Assembly (NCBI GenBank): GCA_964584165.1
Contig: CAZOYW010000007.1
Span: forward strand, 32,886 to 96,885
DNA: 64,000 nucleotides
Reading direction: 5' to 3'
Origin: an uncultured bacterium
GTDB taxonomy: Bacteria; Auribacterota; Erginobacteria; Erginobacterales; CAZKCI01
Both the position numbers and the translations under genes were made by a program. This document shows positions 30,293 through 58,551 of this stretch, piece after piece; positions within the stretch are counted from its first letter, which is position 1; each line of letters opens with the position of its first letter. The notes beneath the pieces were generated by a model. It had not been told where the DNA came from. It worked only from the letters and a program-made list of their open reading frames with translations, and searched no databases.

Positions 30293-31561
30293 ATGCCAGC
30301 TCCCACCTCCCATCGCCTCTCCCAGGCCATCGCCGCCGCCGCCCGCGGACAGACCTTCGCCCTGATGGAGGTCTGCGGGACCCACACCGTCTCCATCTTC
30401 CGCTCCGGGCTCCGCTCCCTCCTCCCCGAGACCATCCGCCTCGTCTCCGGACCGGGCTGCCCGGTCTGTGTCACGCCGGTCGAGTACCTCGACCGCCTGA
30501 TCGCCCTCGCCCGCCGGCCCAAGACCGTCATCGCCACGTTCGGCGACCTGATGAGGGTGCCCGGTTCGAGATCGTCGCTGGCGAAGGAGAGAGCGCGCGG
30601 CGCGGACGTCCGTCTCGTCTATTCCCCCTTGGACAGCGTACGGATCGCCGCCGCCGAGAGGGGGAAGCGCGTGGTCCTCGCCGCCGTCGGCTTCGAGACC
30701 ACCATGCCCGCGGTGGCCGCCGCCGTCCTGGAGGCGGAAAAGCTTGGGCTCGACAACTATTTCATCCTCCCCGGCGGGAGGATGATCGCGCCCGCGATGG
30801 AGTCCCTGCTGGCCCGAACCGGGGAGGATCGTTCGGCCGGTCATTGCCAGGACCCCGAGCGGAGCGAGGGGGACGAAGCAATCTCTCCCTCTCGCCGCTC
30901 TGTCATTGCGAGGACCCCCGAGCGGAGCGAGGGGGACGAAGCAATCTCTCCCTCACGCCGACGGAGAGATCGCTTCGCTTCGCTCTCCCTGACCACCCGG
31001 GCCGTCGAAAAGCCCCTCCGCGGCATCGACGGATTCATCTGCCCCGGCCACGTCTCCGTCGTCACCGGGATGGAACCCTACGAGCGGATCGCCCGGAGGT
31101 ATAAGGTCCCCTGCGCCGTCGCCGGATTCGAAGCGGAGGACATCCTCCTGGCGGTCCTGACGTTGGTGAGGATGATCCGGGAGGGGAAGGCCGGGGCGGC
31201 CAACCTCTACACCCGGGCCGTGCGAACGGAGGGGAATCGAAGGGCGCAGGACCTCCTGCGCCGGGTTTTCCGCGCCGGAGACGCCCCCTGGCGGGGCCTG
31301 GGGACGATCCCGGGGAGCGGCTTCGCCCTGAAAAATGAGTTCCGCCGCTTCGATGCCCGGACGGCGATCCCGCTCCGCCTCCCGCCGGCGCGCGAGGACC
31401 CCCGCTGCCGCTGTGGCGAGGTCCTCACCGGCCGGATCGTCCCCCCCGCCTGCCCCGCCTTCGCCCGCCGCTGCACCCCCGACCGCCCCCTCGGCCCCTG
31501 CATGGTCTCGAGCGAGGGGGCCTGCGCCGCCTGGTTCTCTTTATCGCGGTGCGATCCGTAG
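30293..31561 (+). CDS. hypD: [NiFe]-hydrogenase maturation factor HypD (with in-frame ~55-aa repeat insertion)
   Basis: MEVCGTHT, GPGCPVCV, FETTMP, GFICPGHVS, CRCGEV, MVSSEGACAAW: all HypD hallmarks. Followed by a perfect 11-bp-stem hairpin at 31562-31586. Confidence 0.85.
   Translation: MPAPTSHRLSQAIAAAARGQTFALMEVCGTHTVSIFRSGLRSLLPETIRLVSGPGCPVCVTPVEYLDRLIALARRPKTVIATFGDLMRVPGSRSSLAKERARGADVRLVYSPLDSVRIAAAERGKRVVLAAVGFETTMPAVAAAVLEAEKLGLDNYFILPGGRMIAPAMESLLARTGEDRSAGHCQDPERSEGDEAISPSRRSVIARTPERSEGDEAISPSRRRRDRFASLSLTTRAVEKPLRGIDGFICPGHVSVVTGMEPYERIARRYKVPCAVAGFEAEDILLAVLTLVRMIREGKAGAANLYTRAVRTEGNRRAQDLLRRVFRAGDAPWRGLGTIPGSGFALKNEFRRFDARTAIPLRLPPAREDPRCRCGEVLTGRIVPPACPAFARRCTPDRPLGPCMVSSEGACAAWFSLSRCDP
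30842..30993. repeat. 2 x 62-bp tandem direct repeat plus partial inverted copy, inserted in-frame inside hypD
   Basis: Two copies of cattgc(c/g)aggaccccgagcggagcgagggggacgaagcaatctctccctc(t/a)cgccg, followed by the partial inverted copy ggagagatcgcttcgcttcgctctccc. Encodes a duplicated ERSEGDEAISPSRR segment. Confidence 0.8.
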
Positions 31562-31735: not shown

Positions 31736-32512
31736 TCAGCCAACGGCTTTCAGCCTGCCCAACGCCGACAGCAATCCGTCCAGGATGGTCAGCGGATGAG
31801 GAGGACAGCCGGGTATGAAGAGGTCGACCGGGAGGAGCCCGGGGAGGCCGCCGTGCGCTTCGGGATGGCCGGCGTAGATGCCGCCGGAGATCGCGCAGGC
31901 GCCGACGGCAATGACGATCTTCGGGGAAGGGACGGCCGCGTAGGTCTTGAGGAGCGCGAGCCGCATGTTTTCCGTCACCGGCCCGGTGACGAGGATACCG
32001 TCGGCGTGGCGGGGCGAGGCGACGAACTGGATGCCGAAGCGGCCGATGTCCCAGGCCAGCGTGCCGAGGACGTTGGTGTCGGCCTCGCAGGCGTTGCAGC
32101 CGCCGGCCGAAACCTGGCGGAGTTTCAGCGAACGCGAGAAGCACTTCCTCCGGTCTTCCCGGAGAAGCGGAGGAACCCGCTCACTCCCCGGAACGACGAC
32201 GAGATCCTCCCGCCGGGCCGCGGCGAGGCGGTGGTCGCGGCTGAACAAGACCGCGCCCGAAGGGCAGGCGGCGCGGCAGGCCCCGCAAAAGATGCATAAG
32301 CCCATGTCCAGTCGCAGCGGAGTGGAATCGCGAGGCGGCTGGATCGCCCCGGTCGGGCAGATGGCCGCGCAGGACCGGCAGCCCGGAGCGCATTTCCCGC
32401 CCTCCAGAACCGGACGGCCGATAAAAAGCGCGGGCAATTCCGGCGCCGGGCCGGCGGGATAGGGCATGGTCCGATATCCCTGGTGGAAACGGGCTTTCAA
32501 TATCTCCAGCAT
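31736..32512 (-). CDS. fused 2x[4Fe-4S] ferredoxin (HycF/NuoI-like) + hydrogenase small-subunit/NuoB-like (HycG-type) protein
   Basis: CAPGCRSCAAICP and CIFCGACRAACP; then GGCNACE, VGACAISGG, IPGCPP (proximal-cluster ligands). Confidence 0.75.
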   Translation of the reverse strand: MLEILKARFHQGYRTMPYPAGPAPELPALFIGRPVLEGGKCAPGCRSCAAICPTGAIQPPRDSTPLRLDMGLCIFCGACRAACPSGAVLFSRDHRLAAARREDLVVVPGSERVPPLLREDRRKCFSRSLKLRQVSAGGCNACEADTNVLGTLAWDIGRFGIQFVASPRHADGILVTGPVTENMRLALLKTYAAVPSPKIVIAVGACAISGGIYAGHPEAHGGLPGLLPVDLFIPGCPPHPLTILDGLLSALGRLKAVG

Positions 32513-32522
32513 GTATTCCTCT

Positions 32523-34013
32523 TCACCGATCGAAGCCGCAGTAAGAGAGATTGAAACTCTTGTTGCAGAGGGGGAAGTCCGAGATCTGGCCGTTGCGCAG
32601 GGCGAGGGCGAGACCAAACCAGTTGTGGAAGGAGGGATCGACCGCCTGGTAGCGAGCGAAACGCCCCGCGTCATCGGTGACCGCCGCGTGGCAGATCTCG
32701 CCGCGCCAGCCCTCGACCAGGGCCACGGCGAGCCTCCCCGCCGCCCAAGGCCCCCCCTCCACCCGCGCCGGACCCTCGGGCAGGGCCTGGAGCTGCTCGG
32801 CGATGAAGGCCGCCGACCTCTGGATCTCGAGCCAGCGGACGAAGGCCCGGGCGAAGACGTCGCCGGTCTCCGCCGAGGCCGGCGGGATGTGCGCCATCCG
32901 GAAGATCCCGAAGGGAAAATCCCGGCGGACGTCGCGGGCGAGTCCGGAGGCGCGAGCCGCCAAGCCCACCAAACCTGCCGCCGCCGCGTCCGCCCCCGTC
33001 ACCACGCCCGTCCCCTCGAACCTGGCCAGGACCGACGGCGTCTCCCAGAGAAGCCCGATCGCCGATTCGGCGTCGCGCAGAGCCGCCGCCAGGCGCTCCC
33101 GCAGCCGAGCGGCGGTTTTCTCCTCCAGATCGAACCCGACGCCTCCCGGTCGCATCATCCCGCGTCCGAATCGGTTGCCGCAGAGGGCGGCCGTGAGGTT
33201 CAGGACGTCACCCCGGATCCGCCCGCAGTAGGACATCGTGGGCAGGAAGCCGACGTCGCCGGAGAGAGCCCCCAGATCTCCGAGATGGTTGGCGATCCGC
33301 TCCAGCTCCAGCGCCACGCCCCGAATGACCTGGGCCCGCGCCGAGACCCGGCAGCCGGAGAGCGCTTCCGCGATCCGGCAGTACGCCATGGCGTGGCCCA
33401 CCGTGGTGTCGCCGGCGAGCGTTTCCAGGTAATGAATGGTTTTCGACGCGGGAGCGCCGACCAGCGCCCGTTCGATGCCGCGGTGCTGATAGCCGAGCGA
33501 GATCTCCAGGTGGTGGACGACCTCGCCGTGGCACTGGAAACGGAAGTGCCCCGGCTCGATGATCCCCGCGTGCACCGGCCCCACCGCCACCTCGTGGATC
33601 TCCTCGCCCTCGATCCGGAAAAAGTCCGCGGCGCCGCAGGAAACGGCCGGGCGGCCGGAAAGGCGCGCCGGGGGGAAACGCACCGGTTTCAGCCAGGGGT
33701 GGCCCCGGGGTTCGACGCCGGTCTCCTCGAATATCTCCCGCTCGAAGAGATGCGCCTGGGGACATAACGGCGTCAAGGCGGGATAGCCATCACTGACGGC
33801 GGCGGAGAGGACCGAGAGGATGCCTCGGTCTTCCCGGGCGATGACGGCGACCAGACGCGCCCCCGCCGGCCCGGGGAGGCCGAAGAAAGACGCCAGCCGC
33901 CCGCCGCGGCGAACGCCGATGAGAATGGACTCCCGGAACTCCTCCACGGTGAGAAGGGGGACTTCGCCGAGATCCACCGCGGCGCCGCTCAAGAGGGGAA
34001 CGCCCGCGATCAC
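32523..34013 (-). CDS. NuoC-NuoD-like fused large subunit of an energy-converting-hydrogenase-related complex; NiFe-binding cysteines absent
   Basis: NuoC-like LFEREIFEETGVEPRGHPWL; NuoD-like GPVHAGIIEPGHFRF, ISLGYQHRGIER. Cys are absent at the L1 position (ETLAGDTTVGHAMAY instead of RxCGxCxxxH) and at the C-terminal L2 position (NLSYCGFDR instead of DPCxxCxxR). GTGA-coupled start. Confidence 0.75.
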   Translation of the reverse strand: MIAGVPLLSGAAVDLGEVPLLTVEEFRESILIGVRRGGRLASFFGLPGPAGARLVAVIAREDRGILSVLSAAVSDGYPALTPLCPQAHLFEREIFEETGVEPRGHPWLKPVRFPPARLSGRPAVSCGAADFFRIEGEEIHEVAVGPVHAGIIEPGHFRFQCHGEVVHHLEISLGYQHRGIERALVGAPASKTIHYLETLAGDTTVGHAMAYCRIAEALSGCRVSARAQVIRGVALELERIANHLGDLGALSGDVGFLPTMSYCGRIRGDVLNLTAALCGNRFGRGMMRPGGVGFDLEEKTAARLRERLAAALRDAESAIGLLWETPSVLARFEGTGVVTGADAAAAGLVGLAARASGLARDVRRDFPFGIFRMAHIPPASAETGDVFARAFVRWLEIQRSAAFIAEQLQALPEGPARVEGGPWAAGRLAVALVEGWRGEICHAAVTDDAGRFARYQAVDPSFHNWFGLALALRNGQISDFPLCNKSFNLSYCGFDR

Positions 34014-35491
34014 GGCGTCGCCCCCAGTATCCGGGCGGCCTGGGCGAGCGCGCCCAGCAGCGGAGGCGGCATCCAGACCCCCAGGAGGAGGAGCGCGCCG
34101 AGCGGTCCGAAGACCAGCGCCCCCTCGATCCAACATGCCTTCGGCGGTTTCACCGCCGCCGCCGGGGGATCCCAGGCCATCGCGATGACATGGCGGAGAG
34201 CCCCCACGAAGACGACGCCGACGCCGGAGAGGAAGAGGACGGCGGCCAGCCGGGCGCCGCTGTCCAGCGCGGCTTTGAGGATCAGGAACTCGCTCATGAA
34301 GAGGGCGAAGGGAGCGACGCCGAGGAGGGCGAGCAGGCTGCCGACGAGTCCGGACCCCCAGACCGGCGAGGAGCGCAGGAGGCCCGTCATCCCGCGCATA
34401 TCGTGCGTCCCGTAGATCTGCCCCAGCCTCCCCGCGCAGAAGAACGAGAGGGATTTGCAGAGGGAATGATTGAGCGTGTGCCAGAGGGCCGCCACCGCGC
34501 CGAAACCGCCCAGGCCGACGCCCAGCGCGATGATCCCCAGGTGCTCCACGCTGTGGTAGGCGAGGAGACGCTTGAGGTCGTGCTGGGCCACGATAAAGGC
34601 CGCCGCCACGATGATCGAGACGAGGCCGAAGGCCAGGAGGATCCCCCTTCCCCAGCCCGCGCCGCCCGGGATCGCCTCGGTGAGGGGGAGGCAGCGGAGG
34701 ATGCAGTAGAGGGCGGCGTTGAGCATGAAGCCGGAGAAGACGGCCGAGACCGGGGCGGGCGCCTGGCTGTGGGCGTCCGGGAGCCAGTTGTGCATGGGCG
34801 CCAGCCCCGCCTTGACGCCGTAGCCGACGACCAGGAAGATGAAGCCGGCCTTGAGGAGCGCGGGGTCGAGGCGGGAGGCGGCCGCCCGGGTCGCCGTCCA
34901 GGAGAGCGCGGCGGTCCCCTGGAGGCCCGCCATCCCCGCCGCCGCGGCGACCAGGAGCGCGCCGGTGAAGGCGAGCGCCACGCCGACCGAACACATCAGA
35001 AGGTATTTCCACATCGCCTCCAGCGAGGCCGGCGAGGGATGGATGCAGACCAGGAAGGCGGTGAGGAGCGTGGTCGCCTCGATCCCCACCCACATCAGGC
35101 CCAGGTTGTCGGAGAGGAGCGTGACGAGCATCGCCGCCAGCGACCCGAACCAGAGGCCGCCGTAGCGCCGCGCCGTTTTCCGGGAGAACTCCCCCGCTTC
35201 GATCTCGGCCCGGAAATAGCCGACGGCGTAGAGGGCGCTCAGGGAGAAGATCAACATCATCACCGCCAGGTGATAGGCCGAGAGCGCGTCGAGGCGGAGC
35301 CAGCCCCAGCCGGCCGAGACCGGCCCGGCGCGGAAGACCGTGACCGTGGCGACGGCGGCCAGGCCCGCCGTGATAAGCGTGCCCGCCGCCCCGAAGCGGA
35401 GGATCGCGGACGCGGAGGGAAGCGCGAGCGAGACGCCCGCCAGCGCCACCGGGAGCGCCGCCAGCAGAGGCAATAGCCATTCCGCGTTCAT
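34010..35491 (-). CDS. NuoN/NuoM/HyfF-like antiporter-type membrane subunit
   Basis: 493 aa, polytopic. KAGLAPMHNWLPDAHSQAP motif of complex I antiporter-like subunits. Confidence 0.8.
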   Translation of the reverse strand: MNAEWLLPLLAALPVALAGVSLALPSASAILRFGAAGTLITAGLAAVATVTVFRAGPVSAGWGWLRLDALSAYHLAVMMLIFSLSALYAVGYFRAEIEAGEFSRKTARRYGGLWFGSLAAMLVTLLSDNLGLMWVGIEATTLLTAFLVCIHPSPASLEAMWKYLLMCSVGVALAFTGALLVAAAAGMAGLQGTAALSWTATRAAASRLDPALLKAGFIFLVVGYGVKAGLAPMHNWLPDAHSQAPAPVSAVFSGFMLNAALYCILRCLPLTEAIPGGAGWGRGILLAFGLVSIIVAAAFIVAQHDLKRLLAYHSVEHLGIIALGVGLGGFGAVAALWHTLNHSLCKSLSFFCAGRLGQIYGTHDMRGMTGLLRSSPVWGSGLVGSLLALLGVAPFALFMSEFLILKAALDSGARLAAVLFLSGVGVVFVGALRHVIAMAWDPPAAAVKPPKACWIEGALVFGPLGALLLLGVWMPPPLLGALAQAARILGATP

Positions 35492-35494
35492 GGG

Positions 35495-36136
35495 TCAGCC
35501 TTTCAGGACGTTCAGCCGGTCGGCGTCGATGTGGTCAAACTCGCGGTTGATCCGGTAGATGGCGATCCCCATCACGAAGACCGCCGCGAAGAGGTCCATC
35601 AGGACGCCCAGCTCGATCAGGACCGGGATCTCCCGGGCGATCGCCAGGCCGAAAACGTAGATGCCGTTCTCGACCGCGAGATAGCCGATCGCCTGGTTCA
35701 TCGCCGTTCTCCGGGCCACGATCAGGAAGAGGCCGGTCAGCATCATCAGGAAAGACAACGGCGCGATGAGTCCCGAGGCGGTCTTCAGGGGAAGCGGCAA
35801 GCGGGAGTCGAGCCAGAAGGAGGCGAGCAGGGCGACCACGCCGAAGAGCAGGGACGCGGCGTAGCCGATGAAGGGCCGGGACTCGCGGTTGATGTCGGAT
35901 TCCCGCAAGGCGCGCGCGAGGAGACGGGGGAAAACGAAGCCCTTCATTCCGACCACGATCGCGCCGACCAAGGCCAGGCGCGTCGTCAGGCCGCCGCGCA
36001 GCGCGAGCGGAAGCAGCCCCGCCAGTATCCCCTGGACGGCGCCGATCCGGATGGAGACGCCGAAACGCCCCGCCCCCAGCAGAAGAAAGCTGGTCAGGAC
36101 CAGGGCGACGAGGAGCGTGTCCAGAACCGTCTTCAT
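35495..36136 (-). CDS. HyfE-like small membrane subunit
   Basis: 213 aa, about 6 TM helices. Position and size as HyfE/MbhH-type subunits. Confidence 0.6.
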   Translation of the reverse strand: MKTVLDTLLVALVLTSFLLLGAGRFGVSIRIGAVQGILAGLLPLALRGGLTTRLALVGAIVVGMKGFVFPRLLARALRESDINRESRPFIGYAASLLFGVVALLASFWLDSRLPLPLKTASGLIAPLSFLMMLTGLFLIVARRTAMNQAIGYLAVENGIYVFGLAIAREIPVLIELGVLMDLFAAVFVMGIAIYRINREFDHIDADRLNVLKG

Positions 36137-37053
36137 GACGCGAAACCCGCTACCAGGGCGAAGGCGAGCGCCGAGATGGCGCCCGCGCCCACCAGGAGCT
36201 GGGGGACCTTGGCGAGGGGGAGACGCGCCATCACCGACTCGATCGCGCCCACCGCGACGGCGAGAACCCCCATCCCTCCGGCGAAGGCGGCGAAGGCGAG
36301 CGGGGACGGAAGCTCCCAGGGCGAGAGGACGAGGTTCACGATCAGGCTCCCCGTCACCCAGAGCTTCAGCGAGGCGCCGTAGAGGACTAAAGCCAGGTCG
36401 GGGCCGGAGTAGTCCAGGATCATCACCTCGTGGATCATGGTGAGCTCGAGGTGCGTGTTGGGATCGTCCACCGGGATGCGCGAGTTCTCCGCCAGGAAAA
36501 CGATCAGGAGCGCCGAGGCGACCAGCGCCAGGGCGGGCCCCGACGCCGCCCAGGACGACCGGGAGAGGCCGGCGAAGATCCCGCTCAGGGAGAGCGAGTC
36601 GCCGGAACGGGCCAGGGCGGCCAGGCCGAGGAGGAGAGCCGGCTCGGCCAGGGCGGCGAACTGGACCTCGCGCGACGCCCCCATGCCTCCGAAGCTCGAC
36701 CCGGTGTCCAGTGCCGCGATCACCGTGACGAACCTCATCAACCCCAGGCAGTAGGCGAAGAGGATCAGGTCGCCCGGGAAGGAGACCGGCGCCGGCGACC
36801 CCGGGACGGGCAGGATCGTGAGCGCCGCCGCCACGGACGCGAGAGAGATCGCGGGAGCGGCTCGGAATACCCAGGTGGTGGTGCGGCTGTAAACGGCCCC
36901 TTTCCGGAGAAGCTTGGCGAGATCGCGGTAGGACTGGAGGAGGGGCGATCCCCGCCTCCCCGCGAAGACGGCCTTGGTCCGGTTGATCACTCCCGAGAGG
37001 AGGGGAGCGAGGAGAAGTCCGGCGACCGGCAATAGTATCGAAGACAGGCGCAT
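36133..37053 (-). CDS. NuoH/HycD/HyfC-like membrane subunit
   Basis: LLSGVINRTKAVFAGRRGSPLLQSYRDLAKLLRKG (HycD-type N-terminus). Confidence 0.8.
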   Translation of the reverse strand: MRLSSILLPVAGLLLAPLLSGVINRTKAVFAGRRGSPLLQSYRDLAKLLRKGAVYSRTTTWVFRAAPAISLASVAAALTILPVPGSPAPVSFPGDLILFAYCLGLMRFVTVIAALDTGSSFGGMGASREVQFAALAEPALLLGLAALARSGDSLSLSGIFAGLSRSSWAASGPALALVASALLIVFLAENSRIPVDDPNTHLELTMIHEVMILDYSGPDLALVLYGASLKLWVTGSLIVNLVLSPWELPSPLAFAAFAGGMGVLAVAVGAIESVMARLPLAKVPQLLVGAGAISALAFALVAGFAS

Positions 37054-37060
37054 GACGGCT

Positions 37061-39037
37061 CTAGAGTTTCCAGACCAGGAGGCCCACCAGCGCCAGGACG
37101 ATCCCCAGTATATAAAGGTTCAAACGCCCGTGCTGAAGGAGACGGAGCCGGGCCAGGAGCCCCCCCATGATCGAAAAAATCGGACGGTAGACGCCCTCCT
37201 GGTAGAGATCGGGCGTTTCGCTGGAGAAGGAGGATGACGCGGGGAAGAAACCCATGGGCGGAACGAAACGGCGGCGGGTGCGCAGGAAAACGCGGAACAT
37301 CCGCATCAGGGGATCGGCGAAGGAGGAGGCGGTGTATTGCATCCGGGGCGACGGCGCGATGTAGCCGCAGTCCCAGGTGACGGAGGCGCTCACCTCCCGG
37401 CCGCGGAGAAGGCGGTCTCGCGCCCAGTAGAGAAGGAGGGCAAGGCCGATCCCTCCCGTCGCCACCGCCGCGATCATGGTCAAGGCGTCGCCCACGCCCG
37501 CCGGGGCCGAAGACAAGCCGGCCACCACGCCGACCGCCGGCTGGAGGAATGGGATGATGAACGACCCGCCGAGGCCGATGGCGGCGCAGGTGGTCGCCAG
37601 AATCGCCATCGGCATCTTCATCGCCCCTCCCGATTCATGGGCCGCGGCGGACGCGGAGGAGCGCGGCTCGCCGAGGAAGATCACGCCGAAGGCCTTGACG
37701 AAGCAGGCCACCGCCAGTCCCCCGATCAGTGCCAGCGCGGCGAGGCCGATCATCCCGGCGAAAACCGTCCCGACGGGTTGGCGGCTGGGCTCGGCCACGG
37801 CGCGCAGGGAGGACAGGTAGATCAGGAACTCGCTCACGAAACCGTTGAGCGGCGGCAGTCCGCAGATGGCGGCCGAGCCGACGAGAAAGGCGAGTCCCGT
37901 AGCCGGCAACCGCTTGAGGAGTCCGCCGAGATGCTCGATATCGCCCGTCCCGGCGGCGTGGATGACCGACCCGGCGGAGAGGAAGAGGAGGCTCTTGAAG
38001 ACGGCGTGGTTGATCACGTGGAGGAGCGCGCCGGCCAGGCCCAGAAAGGCCATGGCCGGAGAGCCGTAGGAAATCCCCAAGAGGCCGATGCCGATACCGA
38101 GCGCGATGATCCCGATATTTTCGACGCTGTGGTAGGCGAGGAGGCGCTTGAGGTCGTGCTGGGCGAGCGCGAAGAGGACGCCCAGGACGCCGGAGACGAC
38201 GCCGATGGCGACGAGCGACCAGCCCCACCAGGGAGGCGGCGTCCCGAGAAAGGTGAGAACGCGCAGCAGGCCGTAGATCCCGGTCTTGATCATGACGCCG
38301 CTCATCACGGCGGAGACATGGGAGGGGGCGGCGGGGTGGGCCTCGGGGAGCCAGACGTGGAGGGGAATGAAACCGGCCTTGGCGCCGAAGCCGACGAGGG
38401 CGAGGAGGAAGGCCGCTCCGGCGAAGCCGGGGAGGGCGGCGGCGCGGGCGAACCCGCTGAACTCCAGGCCCTCCGCTCCCCGCCCGAGCAGCGCGAAGAG
38501 GGCGAGCAGGAACGCCGCCCCGATGTGGGCGGCGATCAGGTAGATCCAGCCGGCCCGGCGAACGCCGGCCTTCTCGCTGTCGAACATGACCAGGAAGAAG
38601 GAGGCGATCGACATCGCCTCCCAGGCGAGGAGGAAGAGGAGTCCGTCGCGCGCGAGCACCACCAGGAGCATGCTGGCGGTCAAGAGGTGGAAGAAAAACC
38701 AGGAGGCGGCGATGTCCCTCTTCCCCTCCCGGTCCCTGAGGTAGGCCGACCCGTATATCGCCGAGAGAGCTGTTATGGCGAGTATCGGGAGCGCGAAGAC
38801 GGCGGAGAGGGCGTCCAGGGCCAGGAGGATCGATCCGAATGGCATCGACCAGCCGAGGCGAAGGACGCCCAGAGAGTGTCCGCTCAACGCCATGAGGACC
38901 GGAGGGAGGCCGAGGAGAGCGGCGGCGACGGCGACCGCCGGCCCGACGACCCGCGTCCATGACGGACGGCCGATCGTGGCCAGGCAGAGGAACGCCCCCC
39001 CGAAGAGGACACTAAGAGCCGCGACGATCCAGATCAC
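37061..39037 (-). CDS. NuoL/MrpA/HyfB-like antiporter-type membrane subunit
   Basis: 658 aa. KAGFIPLHVWLPEAHPAAPSHVSA motif. GTG start overlapping the upstream stop. Confidence 0.8.
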   Translation of the reverse strand: MIWIVAALSVLFGGAFLCLATIGRPSWTRVVGPAVAVAAALLGLPPVLMALSGHSLGVLRLGWSMPFGSILLALDALSAVFALPILAITALSAIYGSAYLRDREGKRDIAASWFFFHLLTASMLLVVLARDGLLFLLAWEAMSIASFFLVMFDSEKAGVRRAGWIYLIAAHIGAAFLLALFALLGRGAEGLEFSGFARAAALPGFAGAAFLLALVGFGAKAGFIPLHVWLPEAHPAAPSHVSAVMSGVMIKTGIYGLLRVLTFLGTPPPWWGWSLVAIGVVSGVLGVLFALAQHDLKRLLAYHSVENIGIIALGIGIGLLGISYGSPAMAFLGLAGALLHVINHAVFKSLLFLSAGSVIHAAGTGDIEHLGGLLKRLPATGLAFLVGSAAICGLPPLNGFVSEFLIYLSSLRAVAEPSRQPVGTVFAGMIGLAALALIGGLAVACFVKAFGVIFLGEPRSSASAAAHESGGAMKMPMAILATTCAAIGLGGSFIIPFLQPAVGVVAGLSSAPAGVGDALTMIAAVATGGIGLALLLYWARDRLLRGREVSASVTWDCGYIAPSPRMQYTASSFADPLMRMFRVFLRTRRRFVPPMGFFPASSSFSSETPDLYQEGVYRPIFSIMGGLLARLRLLQHGRLNLYILGIVLALVGLLVWKL

Positions 39038-39750
39038 TCCTGGACGGCTCCTTCCTCCCTGTTCCCGGATGGGCGATGCGGGATGCTGCCGTCGACCAGA
39101 GCCGCGGCGGCGGCGATCTCGGCCCGGCTTCCGCGGCGGGAGATCGCATCGGAGAAAGCGGGATGGCGCAGCGCGAATGACAGCCGGGAGAGAAGATTCA
39201 GATGGGCCGAGATGGTGGGAGAGACGATCATGAAGATCGTGTGGACCGGTTTGCCGTCCAGAGAGCCGAAATCGATCGCTTTCTCCAGGAAACAGAGCGT
39301 CACCATCGGCTGGGGGATGAACATGACGATGGGGTTGCGGACATGGGGGATGGCGATCCCTTCGCCGATCCCCGTGGATCCCAGCGACTCCCGGGCCAGG
39401 AGCACGCGCAACAGGAACATCCGGTCGACTTCCTTCGGGAGCGCCATCATCTCGATGGCGGTTTTCAGGACCGAATCTTTGTCATCACCCTCCACCCGGT
39501 AGTGAATCCCCCCTGCCTGGAGGGCTTCCGCCAAGGAAGGGAACGGCACCTTGTCGCGGTCGGGGTCGGAGAAGATCTCGGTCGAGACGTTGACGCGGTG
39601 GGCCGTCGCCCATTCCAGGAGCTCGGCCCGGTTGATCCGGTATTGCTCGTTGATCTTGAAAACCGGGAGATTGTTCCCCTTGATCCACCGATAAACGGTC
39701 TTCTCCGACACGTTCATCAGCTCGGCTGCTTCTCTGACCCCTATCTGCAT
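39034..39750 (-). CDS. HTH (MerR/excisionase-type) DNA-binding domain fused to PTS EIIA(Fru/Ntr)-type domain; first gene of the Ehr-like operon
   Basis: N-terminal MNVSEKTVYRWIKGNNLP HTH. C-terminal EIIA-2-like domain with GIAIPH active-site His motif. Confidence 0.6.
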   Translation of the reverse strand: MQIGVREAAELMNVSEKTVYRWIKGNNLPVFKINEQYRINRAELLEWATAHRVNVSTEIFSDPDRDKVPFPSLAEALQAGGIHYRVEGDDKDSVLKTAIEMMALPKEVDRMFLLRVLLARESLGSTGIGEGIAIPHVRNPIVMFIPQPMVTLCFLEKAIDFGSLDGKPVHTIFMIVSPTISAHLNLLSRLSFALRHPAFSDAISRRGSRAEIAAAAALVDGSIPHRPSGNREEGAVQE

Positions 39751-39845
39751 ATTTTCTTATCTCTGTATTCCCTCGCTTGTGACAATCCTGGACATATTAT
39801 CGCCCATAGCCCCACTTGTCCACGCCAAACATGCTTTCGCGTGCC

Positions 39846-39881
39846 TGTGGGAGCCCCGATCGAATCGAAGATTCGATCGGG
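39846..39881. mobile_element. TGTGGGAG-family MITE-like element (partial), palindrome CCCCGATCGAATCGAAGATTCGATCGGG
   Basis: Same family as 24632-24707. Confidence 0.45.
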
Positions 39882-40125
39882 ACGATCCAAGCCAGCCAAG
39901 CCCATGCGAGCGCTATCTTGGATGCTATTGTAGCGTCGGGCCTCCTGGCCCGACGTCGTCAGAACCGTCGTAGATGCCTTTCAGTTGCGATATCCAATTT
40001 CGCTCCGAATCTCCGCATCCTGTGTTTTCCATTCGTAGCCTCGGACCTTAATCCCCTCTTCCCGCTCCGCGAATTGTAGGCCGGGTCTGTGACCCGGCGC
40101 GAGGGCGAAGCGGGGGATTTCTTCT

Positions 40126-40488
40126 CTAGTCGCTCTTGTTTTCCTCATCGCTTTCGCGATTATGCGAATCTCCATCTATCCCCGCCCTTTTCAATAGATT
40201 GAATACTAACTTGCCCCTAAACAGCATATACCACGCCAACACAACATATAGCATTATGTGAATAACATTATTTGCGAATGCCGATATATCGATATTTTGC
40301 GCCGTCTTGGCAATATATGTCGCCATATCTTGCCCGGATTCGTCGATATGAATCCTGGGCATGGCGATATACTTGTACATGGATATCATAAGGGATGGCA
40401 GTATCATGACGGCCTTAATGCCGCAATATACGCCGAATGCCCTTACGATCACCCAGGCTGTTTCAGCCCCGTTCATATTCATCTTCAC
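40126..40488 (-). CDS. small membrane protein (2 TM), AT-rich, island-borne
   Basis: 120 aa. GC content far below the genome background. Confidence 0.4.
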   Translation of the reverse strand: MKMNMNGAETAWVIVRAFGVYCGIKAVMILPSLMISMYKYIAMPRIHIDESGQDMATYIAKTAQNIDISAFANNVIHIMLYVVLAWYMLFRGKLVFNLLKRAGIDGDSHNRESDEENKSD

Positions 40489-41360
40489 GTTATTTTCCTT
40501 TTTGGGTATTCAGACCCGAAGCCTCATCCCCACATTTCACTCAACATCCTCGCCCGTTTCAACTTATTCATGAGCACCAAGCGGGGTGCCAATAACCCTT
40601 GGTGAAAGTTGACCGGGCCGATCCTCTTGGCAGGTCTATGAGCAAGACACTACATTTAAGACTTCAAGATCTCAGATTGAGATCTTAAACGCTGCCCGTC
40701 GTTCCGCACACCATGCACTGCGGTTCCCGCCCATCCCTATCTCGCGGGCCTGTTCCCCGGCATTAGCCGTATCTCACGAGGTGATGGCTTGCCTGTATTT
40801 CAACGATCACTTCCTGATATATCGCGATGTTCATCGGGAACTGTTCGCAAATTGCGCTGAATTAGGTGAACCCGCCAACTCGGCCGCACGTCTCGATCAG
40901 GCCGAATGAGAATGTTGACTGATTGATACGTCCTCTGTCTTCATCTTTTTTGCTCGCTTATAAAGCCCCGAAACCCCGGAGGGGTGATCGACAATAGCCA
41001 AGGGGTTTACCCCCTGCTCTGAAGGCAAAATCAGCATGGAGCCCCGGAAGGGCGACGGAATCCCGCCGCCGAAGCTAGCCTCGCGAAATCGCCTGCGCTC
41101 CATCCCCTGCCTTCCTGTCCCGTGCCAATCCAAGGAAGGCTCTCATTTACAACTGTCCAGTTTTTGGGGGGCAGGTCATCCCGAGCATAGGAAAAATAAA
41201 TGATGGTGCACTTTTCAACATAATTTCTCTCCCTAATGGTTAAGGGATTTACTCTAACGGCTCCCGCTCAAGCCGCCCCCCTTTTCCCAGCACTCATTGA
41301 TCGGCGGCTTACAGCCGATTTTTAACCCTAATTTCGGCTTTAAGCCGTTATAAACCCCCA

Positions 41361-41396
41361 TTTATGCGTATCCCTTTGCTAATCAACCAGATTCCG
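41361..41396. repeat. 36-bp direct repeat R1 (tttatgcgtatcc...caaccagat.ccg), 3' of the RSD gene
   Basis: 30/36 identical to R2 at 42818-42853. Confidence 0.6.
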
Positions 41397-41435
41397 TGGT
41401 CCGACTACATGTTCGATATCTCTAGATATTACTCC

Positions 41436-42482
41436 TCACGCCTTGTCATTATCCTTTTTATTGTCTTCATTTTTAGTTGTTAGTGGAAAACCCAATAAGC
41501 CCGGAAATGTCCCCAATCCATACTTTGATATGTCAATCCTGAATTCGTTAGGATTTGGTATACCAGCTATATTTGGACTATCTAAAATGTACATATTCGG
41601 ATCAAATATATTGATCTTTTCTATCTGAAACGCATTCAACTTATTTATCAGTTCCTCCTTTTCCTTTTTTTCAATTTCTAGCTTGTCGATTTTCACTTTA
41701 AGATCTTCAATTATGCAAGACAATTTATTTACCTCCATCTTATGAACTTCAGCAGTTTCGTCAATCTTCCCCTTTAAATACTGTATATATGAGCCCATCC
41801 CATCCGCGCTTCCAGCGAGGCCATTAAATATTTTCAGGTACGGCATTAGTATTGGATTATCTTTGTCGTATGGATATCGCATTTTATGATCGATTTCGCT
41901 CCACGCCTCTTCAAATATAGTTCGTACTTGAATTTCAACAATAACAGGTTCCTTTGTCGGTTGGGTTTTAATTATGTAATGTACAGATCTATATCCATAC
42001 GGGTGGTTTTCCACCACACATCCCTTGTCTGTATACCTATTTTTTTCGTCGCCTTCACGAATATATGCCTTCGGCTTTTCGATGGTCTCCCATTCATTAA
42101 TAATATATTCATGAATATCATCCCAATCATTTTTAAATAAATGCATTACCCTTACCCCAGCTAAATCAATTACAATGTTCCGATAATTATCTATAGCAAT
42201 TCTAACCTCGGAGTTTTCAAGAGATTTTCGAATAATTTTCTCAATTAAATGATCCGATTCTTTAATGCGTGTTTTTACTGAATGAGCTTTAGGTATATTT
42301 CTTAGCCTTTCGGCAATAGAATTCGCTGCTTGAAATAGATTCATAAATGTTTTATCATAATCTTCGACTATCGCCATCAAATTGGCCCACTTTAATCCTG
42401 ATTTAATATAGTTATCATCGGGTATTCTATACTTCTTGATAAAATCCTTATAATTCATAGCACGACTCCATTGTTTATGCAT
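41436..42482 (-). CDS. RelA/SpoT-domain (RSD) protein, toxSAS/CapRel-like single-chain architecture
   Basis: HSVKTRIKESDHLIEKIIRK, YRSVHYIIKT, VEIQVRTIFEEAWSEIDHKMRYPY (synthetase-fold motifs). C-terminal ~140 aa with coiled coil. Low GC. Confidence 0.7.
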   Translation of the reverse strand: MHKQWSRAMNYKDFIKKYRIPDDNYIKSGLKWANLMAIVEDYDKTFMNLFQAANSIAERLRNIPKAHSVKTRIKESDHLIEKIIRKSLENSEVRIAIDNYRNIVIDLAGVRVMHLFKNDWDDIHEYIINEWETIEKPKAYIREGDEKNRYTDKGCVVENHPYGYRSVHYIIKTQPTKEPVIVEIQVRTIFEEAWSEIDHKMRYPYDKDNPILMPYLKIFNGLAGSADGMGSYIQYLKGKIDETAEVHKMEVNKLSCIIEDLKVKIDKLEIEKKEKEELINKLNAFQIEKINIFDPNMYILDSPNIAGIPNPNEFRIDISKYGLGTFPGLLGFPLTTKNEDNKKDNDKA

Positions 42483-42599
42483 TATTCAATTCCACCTTGG
42501 ATCCCTGGATTCGATAGCTTATTCCTTACTGGTGAAGATAGCTTTGAGAACAAAACAGCTACAACATCACCTCCAATGCATTCTCTTGCTTCAACCTGT

Positions 42600-42790
42600 C
42601 AATGAGCTCTAGGCGGGGGGCCTGGATATTCCCCTTCGGCGGGAAGTGGAGCCCCGCACCATTTTTACGCCTCAATGCGAAACTCTAAGCGAAGTGCCCT
42701 TGGCCAATCTATCGCCGCAGAAGACCGGGGCACAAGCCGAAGGGTCGACCGAGCGGATCCGCTTAGGCCGGCCTTTGAGCAAGACGCTGC
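42600..42790 (-). pseudogene. degraded 3' fragment of a GIY-YIG-family paralog (related to the C-terminus of the 47014-47817 gene)
   Basis: The minus strand translates to VLLKGRPKRIRSVDPS... and ...NIQAPRLELIDR. Compare KYIVLLKGRPKRVGPVDSSPKVNIQAPRLALLDRLI in the intact gene. Frameshifts and a stop are present. Confidence 0.5.
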
Positions 42791-42817
42791 TGTTGTTTTG
42801 ACTCCTTTTTATGCGTA

Positions 42818-42853
42818 TCCGCCTGTCAAGCAACCAGATGCCGAAGCCTAACC
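42818..42853. repeat. 36-bp direct repeat R2, immediately 3' of the PHP-SMC ATPase gene
   Basis: See R1. Confidence 0.6.
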
Positions 42854-42863
42854 GCGCATTTAT

Positions 42864-45845
42864 CTATCCAGCCTCGCCTAAAATATGTTTCCACTGTAAT
42901 CGGTAACGCCGCTCACGTTCTAAAAATGCACGTTCCCCTCCCTCTAGAATCCCGCACACCGTCGTCCGGATATTCGGGTTTTCAAGCGACCCGCTCTGAT
43001 ATTTAATGTGTGGAAGAGTGCCGTCTATACTCGGAGTGGCAGTTGCAATAATCACCTGATCCGCATCCGTATTAACGACCAAGTTGGCATTGTGAGTTAC
43101 GATAATTACCTGTCGGCGCTTACGTACTTGACGAAAGTGCGGTACCAAATCATCGAAAACTGATTTGGGATCAAGATTCTCCTCCGGTTGATCTATTAGA
43201 AGGGGGCGCCGGTCGTTGCGATCAATTGCGAGGTATAGCAAAAGAAGCACTATTCCACGCGTACCGGGAGATACCTGTTCAACAACAACCCCATCATACT
43301 CAATCCCATAACGAATTTCGATGTGCTCAGTGCTGTAAAGCCACGCTCCGATCTGGCGAAACCACTCTACCTTTTTCCCGGGTTCGATCGATGAAGGCAT
43401 TGCAGCCTGAATATCATCCGAATGTTTCGCCACGAAATCATGCATAGCCGTCGCCACTTCATCGGGGTTTCCGACGCGCCACGGCGATAAAAGAGCATCC
43501 TTTGTAATGCTGGCCAGTGTGCCGTGCCCTCGAAATGGTGTGTTCTTCCGCAGATCGAGCAATTCTTCCCCAGCCTTAACCCAATCATTGAAACTAACAT
43601 GTCGCCTGACAACAAAACGCATTTTGGCGAGCGCCCCTTGCTCTCCTTCGAGCTCTTTGTGCAACGGCGTATAAAGACGTGCTAGAGCCCGCTCTTCTTC
43701 TGCAAATGTATTGAAAATCGAGCGGTAGGCTTGTCTGCGCGTGGCTCGTAGAGCGCGTAGTCGTTCGTCCGCCCCTTCCCCATTGTCGATCGCGAGGTCT
43801 AGCTTTTTTAGGCTAGTCTCATTCGCTGCAATCGCTCTATTGAGGATGTCATATTTCCTTTGCTTAATCTCGTCACCCCCAACCTGCTTTTTCGCGGCGG
43901 CACGCGCAGATTTCAGCGCGTCGAGCGGCCAAACGTTCAACGGCACTTTCGTAAGATCTAACGGATTAGTAGGGTCGACGCATTGAAGCTTAGTAATCTC
44001 ATTCGCGACTTTGCTTTTAGCTTGGGTGATGATCGTCTCCACATCGCCGGAATATTTTAGCCGGAAATTCCCCCACTCGATTTCAGTAAGACCTGACTCA
44101 GCGAACCTCTCGCGCATTTCAGCCAAACGTTGCGCGGCATCTTGATCGCGAATGAATATCACCTCGGCGAGCAAGTCATCCAAAGCTTTTTGCCTCCGCC
44201 TCAAGCTTTCAACGCGGTTTTCTGCGTCCGTACATGCCAGATCAAGTTCGAGCAACCGCTGGGCTCGTTTTCCAGCATCCTTCGGCAGCAGGTTCTCAAG
44301 ATCTTTGCGAGATTTCTTGAGTTGCACGCCCAAACTATTGCGATCAATTCGGAGCTTGGGCAATTGATCCTGCAACCGCATCTCCATGGCAATTTTCGCA
44401 GAAGCTGTCGCCACACTTTCGATTTGCTGCTGGCGGCGGCGTCTGATCGGTTTCAGCAACAGATCTGCAAGCGCCTCGAAAGATTCGGTTTGCATACGGT
44501 CTACTGGTTCGGTTTGGTCGAAAATCACCCTCTCAATCTCTTGTCGTAGTTCGACGGCAAGCCCTGCAGATGAGCAAAGTTGTTCCACGAACTGCTGTGA
44601 GAGATAGCGCACCTGCGGCATTTCCTCCGTCCATTCGTCGGGTGAACGGAAGGGAGCCAACTTCCTCTCACCATCGGCCCAGACCTCTTCAACTTGAGCG
44701 TCGCCGATGAGATCGTCAGGTGAGGTGGCTCGCCGCAAAAATGAGGATTCACCCAAGTTGTTGCCGATTGCCTGAGCACCGGCGGCAATCATGTCAAGCA
44801 GCGCGGTCTTGCCAGAACCCCGCTCGCCAATGATGCTGATAAGTCCATGGTTCAATTCGATTTCTTTATTGAGGACCCAAGACATGCCGATGGGCTTTAT
44901 GCTCTCGAGGGTAACCGAATCGGGGATTTCAGTCGGAGATCGTTCGCTGATCGAGACTCGTTCTTCCGGCTCAATGACGGCCTGGCGGAGACTCTCAAAT
45001 GCGAGATCGCCCTTGATCCAGCAATAGCGCGCCAAGTCTGGAGCAGCGACACGGTCCAATTGGTGAGCGTCACATCCATGGAGGCAAGGCTTGATTGCAC
45101 CATATCTGCGTTCAATCGCCTTGCGATCCATCCCGGCCTTGAACCCTAGCCAAAAATCATGGTCGGCTTTGTTGCCTGAGAAGATTATATGCGAGAAACC
45201 CTCGATTTCTTGCCGGATAGCGGAGAAGGCATCATCCTCTTGGAGGCCAGAAGTCCCATCACATTTCGAACTTGCGACTGCCACGAGGCAGTTGTGTCGA
45301 ACCCAGGAATCTTCACGAAAAAGACCTCGCAGCTGGTCAAGGGTTACTTTGAACTGACCAACACCTTCTCGGAATGCACCTTCATCATCCGTTTGCTTTG
45401 GATTATACTTGCGGCCCAATGCGATGAGTTCCGAGCGCGCGCATGAATATTTTCGCTCCTTATACTCGAACGTGAGCTTTCCGAGAATTCGTTCAATCTG
45501 CTGCTCGTGATCCAGATCATCAGGAGAAAACAAGAGATGAATATTGATGCCTTTACTTTGCGCGGTCTTGAGCTCAAGCCTCATTTCAATATTTGGGAAA
45601 ATAAGGTCCACTTGAGGCAGCCGGCCCTCAGCTTTATGCGCACAGATTTGCTTATAACTCTGGATGCACAAATAATCCGTGATGCCTATGGCTCGGATGG
45701 TAGGGGATGCATTTTCGATCTTTTCCAGATAACCCTGCCAGGCACCAGCGAACTGATCACCCAGCACGGTTCCCGGTGCATGAATATGGGGGTCCCAGCG
45801 GTGCCATTCTGAACCGCGCAGGCTCCATTTTGGTGTTGCTTTCAT
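42864..45845 (-). CDS. PHP (polymerase/histidinol-phosphatase) domain fused to SMC/RecF/ABC-type coiled-coil ATPase (993 aa)
   Basis: N-terminal WDPHIHAPGT...AIGITDY (PHP motifs). Walker A IIGERGSGKTALL. Roughly 450 aa of coiled coil. C-terminal LLIDQPEENLD (Walker B / D-loop) and VTHNANL (H-loop). GGAGGA RBS; AT-rich upstream region. Confidence 0.8.
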   Translation of the reverse strand: MKATPKWSLRGSEWHRWDPHIHAPGTVLGDQFAGAWQGYLEKIENASPTIRAIGITDYLCIQSYKQICAHKAEGRLPQVDLIFPNIEMRLELKTAQSKGINIHLLFSPDDLDHEQQIERILGKLTFEYKERKYSCARSELIALGRKYNPKQTDDEGAFREGVGQFKVTLDQLRGLFREDSWVRHNCLVAVASSKCDGTSGLQEDDAFSAIRQEIEGFSHIIFSGNKADHDFWLGFKAGMDRKAIERRYGAIKPCLHGCDAHQLDRVAAPDLARYCWIKGDLAFESLRQAVIEPEERVSISERSPTEIPDSVTLESIKPIGMSWVLNKEIELNHGLISIIGERGSGKTALLDMIAAGAQAIGNNLGESSFLRRATSPDDLIGDAQVEEVWADGERKLAPFRSPDEWTEEMPQVRYLSQQFVEQLCSSAGLAVELRQEIERVIFDQTEPVDRMQTESFEALADLLLKPIRRRRQQQIESVATASAKIAMEMRLQDQLPKLRIDRNSLGVQLKKSRKDLENLLPKDAGKRAQRLLELDLACTDAENRVESLRRRQKALDDLLAEVIFIRDQDAAQRLAEMRERFAESGLTEIEWGNFRLKYSGDVETIITQAKSKVANEITKLQCVDPTNPLDLTKVPLNVWPLDALKSARAAAKKQVGGDEIKQRKYDILNRAIAANETSLKKLDLAIDNGEGADERLRALRATRRQAYRSIFNTFAEEERALARLYTPLHKELEGEQGALAKMRFVVRRHVSFNDWVKAGEELLDLRKNTPFRGHGTLASITKDALLSPWRVGNPDEVATAMHDFVAKHSDDIQAAMPSSIEPGKKVEWFRQIGAWLYSTEHIEIRYGIEYDGVVVEQVSPGTRGIVLLLLYLAIDRNDRRPLLIDQPEENLDPKSVFDDLVPHFRQVRKRRQVIIVTHNANLVVNTDADQVIIATATPSIDGTLPHIKYQSGSLENPNIRTTVCGILEGGERAFLERERRYRLQWKHILGEAG

Positions 45846-45970
45846 CTGATAACTATAGTCCTCCAGTTGCTTGTTCGCGATATATTCAGATCCCGAATAT
45901 TGCCCATTGCCATATAATTTCCCCGATATTTACGCTAGGTATAGCTATAATTTGAGGTTATCATCCAATA

Positions 45971-46417: not shown

Positions 46418-46530
46418 ATTTGTTCCTCCCTTCCATTGTTTAATTTCAGATATTATTTGAATACGTAGGCCAACGTCCTAACCTACTTTAACCTATCCAT
46501 AAGCGCCGAACGAATGGTATGAATATTCAT

Positions 46531-46896: not shown

Positions 46897-47013
46897 AAAT
46901 ATGCCCTTTTAGTTTCAGCGAGATATGCTCGCTAATATCGACACCGCCTCTGCCAACGTCCTCGACCGCTTCAACCTGTTCATAAGCGTCAGGCAGGGGA
47001 CCTGACTACCTGA

Positions 47014-47817: not shown

Positions 47818-48078
47818 TTGGCATCTCCTTTCACAATCCCAATCGCTTCCTCCGTCAGTTCAAATAGCTCATAATGACCGAACTTGTACAGGCGGGAAGG
47901 TTGCGCTCGAAGACTTCGACCAGGCGTTGGATCTTGTCCGAGGCGGGCATGGTCTATACCGGAGGGTTGTTTATAATCATACAAATCCCCGTTTTCCAAT
48001 TCCATAAGATATTCCATTACATAATATATTCCAGTTCCCCCCTCCCTCCTATTCATAGCCCCCCCCGCCTGCTCCCCC

Positions 48079-49507: not shown

Positions 49508-49532
49508 AAGCCCGAAGCAGGCGGAAAGGGGG

Positions 49533-58541: not shown

Positions 58542-58551
58542 GTTCCCATTC

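Follow-up and report, generated by a model that had tools for sequence, protein, structure and literature searches.

Ech-hydrogenase-related (Ehr) complexes are defined as relatives of the hydrogenases that lack the ligands of the nickel-iron (NiFe) site, and they have been viewed as a missing link that joins hydrogenases to respiratory complex I. Hundreds of species carry them, among these Geobacter, Planctomycetes, Verrucomicrobia, Acidobacteria, and, as aerobes, comammox Nitrospira, but their substrate and physiological role are unknown. In Geobacter sulfurreducens, the cluster GSU0739-0745 encodes subunits that include EhrA-1, EhrC, EhrL, and EhrS, and the proteins have been detected in proteomes, where their levels vary with the electron donor and are higher with formate. 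The only member of the clade for which genetics is available is Hyq of Azorhizobium caulinodans, which is NifA dependent. Deletion of hyq cuts microaerobic H2 evolution by about 80%, a nifK background being no exception, and H2 evolution persists in a nifK hupSL mutant, but the authors of that work rated a NiFe site in Hyq as "uncertain, if not unlikely." Here we describe a seven-gene ehr operon at positions 31736-39750, on the reverse strand of a 64,000-nucleotide stretch of contig CAZOYW010000007.1 from an uncultured bacterium (the whole stretch is hereafter called the window).

By comparison of its genes with those of other genomes, the operon encodes an Ehr complex of a known kind, an ortholog of the Geobacter-type cluster and not a relic. 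We consider it probable, at roughly 60%, that the product is a redox-coupled, ion-translocating complex that comes with its own regulator linked to the phosphotransferase system (PTS). What the analysis adds to the earlier work is the regulator as a hallmark of the family, a candidate operator with a probable mode of control, and conservation data that contradict the view of Ehr as a dead relic.

Gene content and layout of the ehr operon

Genes were assigned with Pfam and NCBIfam profile models, which confirmed that the operon is real and that all seven genes are present. The first gene in the direction of transcription (39034..39750) encodes the regulator, a helix-turn-helix (HTH) domain joined to a PTS enzyme IIA (EIIA) domain (HTH_17 and PTS_EIIA_2). 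It is followed by two genes for membrane subunits: ehrA (37061..39037), for an antiporter-type protein of 658 amino acids resembling HyfB, HycC, and NuoL (Proton_antipo_M, E = 5e-50), and ehrB (36133..37053), for a NuoH/HyfC/HycD-like protein of 306 amino acids (PF00146 NADHdh, E = 7e-32). Next come ehrC (35495..36136), whose 213-amino-acid product is HyfE-like and resembles NuoK in its C-terminal half (hydrogenase 4 membrane subunit model, E = 3e-23; Oxidored_q2), and ehrD (34010..35491), for a second antiporter-type subunit of 493 amino acids related to HyfF and NuoM/N (Proton_antipo_M, E = 4e-44; hydrogenase 4 subunit F model, 383 bits). The last two genes encode the peripheral arm. The product of ehrL (32523..34013) is a large subunit of 496 amino acids in which NuoC and NuoD are fused (Complex1_49kDa and Complex1_30kDa), and that of ehrS (31736..32512) is a 258-amino-acid fusion of a HycF/NuoI-like 2x[4Fe-4S] domain (residues 1-105; Fer4 families) to a HycG/NuoB-like domain (residues 121-255; Oxidored_q6). 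An initial annotation, made from the letters of the window, had read the gene order as EIIA-HTH regulator, NuoL-, NuoH-, HyfE-, NuoN-, and NuoCD-like genes, and a HycF-HycG fusion, and the profile models returned the same order.

Two start codons were refined. The start of ehrL was placed at a GTG at 34013, which overlaps the stop codon of ehrD, and that of ehrS at an ATG at 32512, rather than at 32674, with a GAGG ribosome-binding site ahead of it. The GTG start of ehrA likewise overlaps the stop codon of the regulator gene (GTGA). Because neighboring genes in the set either overlap by 4 nucleotides or lie 3-10 nucleotides apart, we conclude that the seven genes form one operon. The G+C content of the window is about 70%, and G+C by codon position picks out a single frame for each gene; all seven frames are intact, with third-position G+C (GC3) values of 0.80-0.93.

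A scan of one genome per species gave at least 599 matching stretches, of which 80 loci were kept and compared with the seven window proteins by tblastn. The same gene order, including the fused EhrS, was found throughout the kept loci and across many phyla; among them are Geobacter, Geomonas, Pelobacter, Geothrix, spirochaetes, Fibrobacteres, Cloacimonadaceae, Gemmatimonadota, and a metagenome-assembled genome (MAG) of Chlamydiota, and among named genomes a Verrucomicrobia MAG matches best (66-70% identity). As architecture and motifs recur in 80/80 fetched loci, the operon is not a product of chance. Homologs of EhrL itself fill more than 8000 protein clusters; apart from its own cluster (100%), the top 120 are 61-71% identical, and identity across phyla is 55-70%. 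Where the sources of these homologs are named, they are Verrucomicrobia, Kiritimatiellia, Planctomycetes, Acidobacteria, Myxococcota, NC10, Binatia, and others. The EhrS fusion is conserved in 74 loci. By median identity, the peripheral-arm subunits are the best conserved (58-59%, versus 39-46% for the antiporter-like subunits).

The window operon shares with the Geobacter Ehr cluster the subunit set EhrA, EhrB, EhrC, EhrD, a cysteine-less EhrL, and EhrS. Five Geobacter, Geomonas, and Pelobacter loci (L019, L022, L026, L028, and L032) have the same order and a large subunit 58-60% identical to that of the window; gene order, loss of the NiFe ligands, and this identity bear out the annotated kinship to energy-converting-hydrogenase-related complexes. 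Unlike the window, which has a single EhrA and the regulator at the head of one operon, Geobacter-type loci have a second NuoL-like gene (EhrA-1), often in a divergent unit with the regulator, as in L026, L028, and L075. A different variant is found in Opitutae and other Verrucomicrobia (L043, L046, L055, L064, L067, L070, and L071), where a divergent HTH-EIIA gene (about 25% identity) lies between two NuoL-like genes; L055 has a second HTH-EIIA copy between EhrD and EhrL. In L026 and L049, a second, Hyq-like cluster stands beside the Ehr cluster.

The A. caulinodans hyqRBCEFGI operon is likewise a set of seven genes and matches the window in their order (regulator, B, C, E, F, G, and I). Its plasmid-borne homologs in Rhizobium and Azospirillum are, however, only 37-38% identical to EhrL, and the Rhizobium locus departs from the window at both ends. 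There, the gene in the HyqR position encodes a 104-amino-acid XRE-type HTH protein (HTH_3 only) without an EIIA domain, in which no similarity to the window regulator was detectable, and HyqI is a 177-amino-acid protein with Oxidored_q6 (NuoB) only, without a ferredoxin domain.

No additional subunits or partners accompany the set. FdhF, NuoEFG, and PTS genes were all missing from the window, and the formate dehydrogenase or HycB-like partner that distinguishes Escherichia coli formate hydrogenlyase (FHL) was not found around the operon. NuoA/J subunits were absent from the window and did not recur in the flanks of the 80 loci. Moreover, all-against-all clustering of 2364 flank open reading frames (ORFs) from the 80 loci gave no recurrent partner genes of the FdhF, NuoEFG, nif, hyp, or PTS kinds; the families obtained were generic, none of them in more than 10 loci. 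FdhF and NuoEFG partners, which the initial annotation had named as genes that might have been missed nearby, are thus found neither in the window nor repeatedly in the 10-kb flanks of the 80 loci.

The HTH-EIIA regulator and its candidate operator

The HTH domain of the regulator (residues 5-51) matched PF12728 HTH_17 with 53.4 bits (cut-off, 27) and the excisionase-type model TIGR01764 with 47.2 bits (cut-off, 28.8), and the EIIA domain (residues 77-213) matched PF00359 PTS_EIIA_2 with 87 bits, above the curated cut-off. The score with the PtsN model TIGR01419 was 58.6 bits, below its cut-off of 138.7. Four sequence matches to the EIIA domain were found in the Protein Data Bank (PDB), all of them PtsN, with the phosphorylation-site segment AREsLGSTGiGeGiAIPH aligned. 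The six best fold matches of the AlphaFold model of the regulator (mean pLDDT, 85) were also all PtsN, with TM-scores of 0.69-0.83 normalized to the target and about 0.5 normalized to the query; no solved structure spanning both domains was among them. The histidine of the GIAIPH motif (H136) is kept in all homologs compared (48/48), even in divergent ones of about 25% identity. Regulation by phosphorylation state, as the annotation had proposed, is therefore supported by a domain that is PtsN-like in sequence and predicted fold and by its invariant AIPH histidine. PtsN, the only solved sequence relative of the domain, has the same histidine in its AIPH segment but is a stand-alone protein of about 150-160 amino acids that works through protein-protein contact, whereas the window domain is part of a fusion with an excisionase-type HTH, encoded at the head of a bioenergetic operon.

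The regulator has more than 7500 homologs, the best of them 60-70% identical, and its conservation is on a par with that of the catalytic subunits. A homolog was present in 41 of the 56 loci with sufficient upstream sequence, and in 34 it adjoins the first membrane-subunit gene. Such a first gene had been called unusual; that view did not hold, and we conclude that the HTH-EIIA regulator is a conserved hallmark of the Ehr cassette. No recurring upstream ORF was found as an alternative regulator in the 15 loci without the gene. We found no published paper that describes the HTH-EIIA regulator or its operator in Ehr loci.

A promoter scan and a pattern search upstream of the regulator gene indicated a sigma-70-type promoter with a candidate operator (39779..39822, reverse strand). 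The predicted promoter has a −35 element TGGACA (39822..39817) and a −10 element TAATAT (39799..39794) separated by 17 nucleotides, and direct repeats TGTCCA (39794..39789) and TGTCAC (39784..39779), with a 10-bp period, overlap the −10/+1 region. In the window, TGGACA-N17-TAATAT is followed by GTCCAggatTGTCAC, and on the contig of the closest relative TGGACA-N17-TAGTTT is followed by GTCCgcgtTTGTCC. In a k-mer count across loci, ATGTCCA stood out upstream of the regulator gene, and the element proved to be a tandem direct repeat, TGTC(C/T)A-N4-TGTC(C/T)A, mostly 40-51 nucleotides ahead of the start codon. The tandem repeat was found in 11/21 loci with a regulator at least 50% identical, versus a fraction of 0.001 of random 150-nucleotide windows. 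Of 12 strict occurrences among all fetched loci, 11 precede the regulator and have the same orientation. When the loci were stacked on the repeat, a TTGACA/TGGACA box appeared 22-23 nucleotides upstream, with the −10 hexamer entering the first repeat. The tandem TGTCCA repeats are, as a candidate operator, a new finding of this analysis. The predicted sigma-70-like promoter, with its conserved −35/−10 pair, differs from the hyq promoter, which is of the NifA/sigma-54 type; the sole candidate for a sigma-54 promoter upstream of the regulator, the GG/GC sequence GGCACGCGAAAGC, has N9 spacing instead of N10 and was rejected. About 35 nucleotides upstream of the ehr −35 box lies a perfect palindrome, CCCGATCGAATC-TTC-GATTCGATCGGG (39855..39881), which is not at this position in other loci and could be the site of a second regulator or a hairpin.

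Because the candidate operator overlaps the −10/+1 region, its position suggests repression, and the arrangement as a whole suggests autorepression controlled by the PTS. Excisionase-type HTH proteins such as lambda Xis bind head-to-tail to direct repeats. The HTH domain of the regulator would bind the tandem TGTCCA repeats at its own promoter in this way, most likely repressing the whole operon, and DNA binding would change when the NPr/HPr branch of the PTS phosphorylates His136. Such phosphorylation control would tie ehr expression to the carbon/nitrogen and energy state of the cell. If PTS control is true, then shifts in carbon or nitrogen that change phosphorylation in the nitrogen-related PTS (PTS-Ntr) should switch the ehr operon; the NifA control of Hyq points to the same physiology. 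The regulator and operator findings alone do not reveal the substrate.

PtsN regulates membrane cation transporters (K+ transporters) by direct binding. The HTH-EIIA protein might likewise act mainly at the protein level, gating the complex directly, or act at both levels. The regulator gene is translationally coupled to ehrA through the GTGA overlap, the protein is as conserved as the catalytic subunits, and divergent copies lie inside the cluster in Opitutae-type loci, L055 having two; all of these would fit direct gating. Yet the HTH domain is always retained, and a positionally fixed DNA motif conserved across phyla in the gene's own promoter is unexpected for a protein whose role does not involve DNA binding. 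We therefore judge action mainly on the complex itself to be unlikely and return to the regulator as a probable repressor. The similar conservation of regulator, operator, and structural genes across phyla agrees with horizontal transfer of the cassette as one unit. The analysis shows the Ehr family to be under strong purifying selection and to travel as a self-contained cassette, which usually includes a PtsN-type regulator of its own along with a conserved TGTCCA operator.

The large subunit and the fate of the NiFe site

The tested subunits have their best solved relatives in E. coli Hyc (HycE, HycG, HycF, and HycC), and Hyc/Hyf and the window complex share the same design of membrane arm and peripheral arm. 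For EhrL the best relative was HycE (7z0s_E, E = 2e-44), followed by Thermus Nqo4 and Pyrococcus MbhL. Residue-level alignment placed AGDT of EhrL opposite the L1 motif CGIC of HycE and NLSYCG opposite the L2 motif DPCYSC. With ETLAGDTTVGH as its L1 and FPLCNKSFNLSYCGFDR as its L2, EhrL has none of the four cysteines that serve as NiFe ligands in group 4 [NiFe] hydrogenases. It also terminates one residue past the L2 motif and so lacks the C-terminal extension, the protease-processed tail; in these respects, and in the fusion of HycF to HycG, the window complex differs from Hyc/Hyf. C492, the only nearby cysteine, lies one position ahead of the second L2 ligand, and since that position is a serine in the sister Hyq subfamily, C492 is not a displaced ligand. 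HyqG is similarly a NuoC::D fusion without both CxxC motifs, with xGD(T/S) in L1 and NKSFNxSY(C/S)GxD in L2. In an alignment of 22 homologs from many phyla, ETLAGDT(T/S)xGH and DFPLCNKSFNLSYCG are invariant, the L2 segment invariant in the family being NKSFNLSYCG, and mean column identity is 74%. The alignments with HycE, with the family, and with Hyq agree with the annotation that L1 and L2 have been lost (AGDT, NLSYCG) and show that the ligands are truly absent, not shifted.

The C terminus of EhrL (32523..32537) reads CGFDR, where 20/22 aligned homologs read CGHDL; the nearly invariant His494 is replaced by phenylalanine in the window and in Geomonas and by tyrosine in the closest relative. 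Immediately downstream of the cassette, on the other strand, the contigs of that relative (L086, 12313..12693; L087, 10553..10933) have a small gene of the carbonic anhydrase family (Pro_CA_2); in 5 other loci, the cassette has SulP-type anion transporter genes in its vicinity. These numbers are too small for an association. These neighbors raised the idea of a beta-carbonic-anhydrase-like zinc site formed by C483, C492, and H494, which was rejected, as none of the three is conserved across Ehr and Hyq.

The catalytic center may have been lost altogether, leaving a nonfunctional complex that is drifting, as a 2026 paper asserts for G. sulfurreducens KN400; there, Ehr counts as nonfunctional already, and ehr mutations are read as the result of relaxed selection. 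The conservation data strongly contradict a relic. All seven frames are intact at the GC3 values given above, the identity of EhrL across phyla and the mean column identity of its alignment are high, and the replacement motifs are invariant, which argues for strong purifying selection on EhrL and hence for a site that works. Moreover, regulator and operator are conserved together, and the Geobacter Ehr proteins are both detected and regulated in proteomes. We regard a drifting relic as scarcely credible.

The remainder of the complex is consistent with electron transfer and ion translocation. In EhrS, the CNAC, GAC, and GCPP cysteines line up with those of MbhJ and HycG, so that all four cysteines of the proximal cluster are kept, as had been noted from the sequence, and the N-terminal 105 residues align with HycF. 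The protein thereby keeps the cysteines for three [4Fe-4S] clusters. EhrA scored 619 bits against the hydrogenase 4 subunit B model, and its alignment to HycC, its best solved relative (7z0s_C, E = 1e-69), displays charged residues in WE, GAKAG, MIKTG, FKSLLF, and SEF. Both antiporter-like subunits, EhrA and EhrD, keep the conserved glutamate and lysine residues (WE, GxKAG, K, and SEF).

In the mechanism we propose, electrons would pass between a ferredoxin-like partner and a remodeled pocket at the EhrL/NuoH interface via the three EhrS clusters. The pocket would convert some substrate in place of the H2 handled at a NiFe site, and its reaction would be coupled to movement of H+ or Na+ through EhrA and EhrD; in the reverse mode, the membrane potential would drive the making of reduced ferredoxin. 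As the acceptor we tentatively prefer a quinone, in which case the complex would be a stripped-down, reversible ferredoxin:(mena)quinone oxidoreductase, although we hold this step to have somewhat less than an even chance of being right. A quinone is favored because Ehr is found in numerous lineages that respire with quinones, among them aerobes with a need for reduced ferredoxin, and because Ehr and Hyq, the latter under NifA control, both appear to be wired to nitrogen/carbon status.

Several observations weigh against this proposal, of which the acceptor is the weakest step. In an ungapped alignment to 2fug_4, His38 and Tyr87 of Thermus thermophilus Nqo4, which we take to be the quinone head-group ligands, correspond to Ile152 and Gly201 of EhrL. 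Complex I thus differs from the window complex in these positions as well as in its NuoEFG module, which is absent here. The proximal-cluster motif of EhrS is the hydrogenase-type CxxC, not the tandem CC of complex I, and since HycE rather than NuoD is the best solved relative of EhrL, the peripheral arm is more like that of a hydrogenase than that of a quinone reductase. The only genetics of the clade, that of A. caulinodans Hyq, points to H2 turnover. Because of Ile152/Gly201, the cluster motif, and the Hyq genetics, a quinone is held loosely as the acceptor. The AlphaFold model of EhrL was dropped for inspection of the pocket, as its confidence is too low in exactly those regions (pLDDT below 50 around the pocket, at residues 108-175, 328-384, and 466-496). 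On the side of regulation, the probable repression is read from the position of the operator alone, the window has no PTS genes, and the regulator is missing from 15/56 informative loci.

The same Hyq genetics raises the alternative that the cysteine-less EhrL still makes or consumes H2, as has been claimed for the Hyq "endo-hydrogenase," perhaps at a noncanonical metal site that requires Hyp maturation, so that the complex would be a ferredoxin:H+ oxidoreductase like Ech or FHL. Besides the H2 phenotypes of the hyq deletion and the nifK hupSL mutant, such a cryptic hydrogenase would be in keeping with the same kind of L1/L2 replacements in HyqG and EhrL, with the FHL/Hyf architecture, and with HycE as the nearest solved relative. 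Two maturation genes, moreover, flank the operon: hypD (30293..31561) converges on its 3′ end, and hypE (49766..50821) lies 10 kb past its promoter, beyond an 8-kb low-G+C defense island. Just upstream of hypD are six tandem GTCCAT units (starting at 30235, 30244, 30253, 30262, 30272, and 30280) with a period of about 9 bp, the last ending 8 nucleotides before the hypD start. Their core matches that of the TGTCCA operator, and coregulation of hypD with ehr is possible but unproven. The period, however, is 9 bp and not 10, and with TGTCC-containing palindromes nearby, the array may belong to a different DNA-binding protein. No hyp gene was found in the flanks of the 80 other loci or on the contig of the closest relative, and hypA, hypB, hypC, hypF, and hydrogenase structural genes were absent from the window ORFs scanned. 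At the site itself, Ehr and Hyq taken together conserve neither a cysteine nor a histidine near L1/L2: C492 is serine in Hyq, H494 is phenylalanine in the window, and C483 is asparagine in Geomonas. The Hyq evidence, finally, is in vivo genetics only, and its authors doubt the NiFe site. We consider a cryptic hydrogenase distinctly unlikely. Its fullest form, a new type of H2-metabolizing enzyme without NiFe cysteines, as the unreplicated Hyq genetics suggests, that would be matured by HypD and HypE, coregulated through GTCCA arrays, and switched by the nitrogen PTS through the PtsN-HTH protein, is very improbable.

Another acceptor might occupy the pocket instead, either polysulfide or another sulfur compound, as in MBS/Mbx of Pyrococcus, or a small cytoplasmic molecule. 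EhrL has a set of polar residues there (Asp202, Thr203, Asn484, Lys485, Ser486, Asn488, Ser490, Tyr491, and Asp495) that are invariant across phyla and largely common to Hyq. MBS (6u8y), a detectable relative (E = 2e-17), is a solved precedent for a hydrogenase-derived complex with a different substrate, and the absence of the canonical quinone ligands would also be accounted for. Against such an acceptor, MBS is far more distant from EhrL than HycE or NuoD, and no sulfur-metabolism or substrate-specific neighbor genes recur in the 80 loci. Furthermore, the very diverse lifestyles of the organisms that carry Ehr, including aerobic comammox Nitrospira, argue for a universal substrate and not a niche one. 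We therefore think a sulfur compound or a small cytoplasmic molecule rather unlikely and keep the quinone as the tentative choice.

Neighboring genes and repeats in the window

The genes hypD and hypE, which are usually adjacent, are here 18 kb apart, with the ehr operon and the low-G+C island between them. An in-frame 63-bp tandem duplication (21 amino acids, 1.9 copies) is present in the middle of hypD (30840..30960). A locus from the same organism in another sample (L083, 99.7% identical) has one copy fewer, and HypD forms of 422 and 401 amino acids are both in the protein collection.

The island (about 40100..48050) has a G+C content of 46-51% in a genome of 70% G+C and carries defense-type genes: a RelA/SpoT-like gene (PDC-S33; 41436..42482), a gene for a Ppl-like/SMC-type ATPase of 993 amino acids (42864..45845), and a gene for a TIR-domain effector (45971..46417). 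A tRNA scan and an Rfam scan of the window gave no matches, and no tRNA was found at the island edges.

Beyond the island, an 87-bp unit is repeated 4.4 times (48078..48463), each unit with a palindrome of about 40 nucleotides, GGGACAA-N5-TGTCCGATCGGACA-N5-TTGTCCC, and two further copies of the palindrome lie downstream (49386..49425 and 49464..49510). Between the palindromes lies a PaaX-like gene whose middle domain is Cas2-like (48568..49356), and the whole set is ahead of hypE. The TGTCCGATCGGACA palindrome was considered as part of an Ehr regulon and rejected, since none of the 87 other loci has it; it is probably a local feature of the PaaX-like gene. Following the palindromes, a GGGATGA heptamer is repeated about 8 times (49531..49588), and then a 73-bp unit is repeated 2.5 times (49595..49777), reaching into the start of hypE.

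Farther along the window are a gene for an NfnA-like protein (a subunit like the FAD/NAD-binding subunit of sulfide or dihydroorotate dehydrogenase; 52042..52926) and one for an NfnB/GltD-like protein (58543..60051). The two are usually adjacent; here, genes for a phosphoglucomutase, an unassigned 914-amino-acid protein, and a histidine kinase lie between them. The Nfn-like genes suggest a ferredoxin-based anaerobic metabolism.

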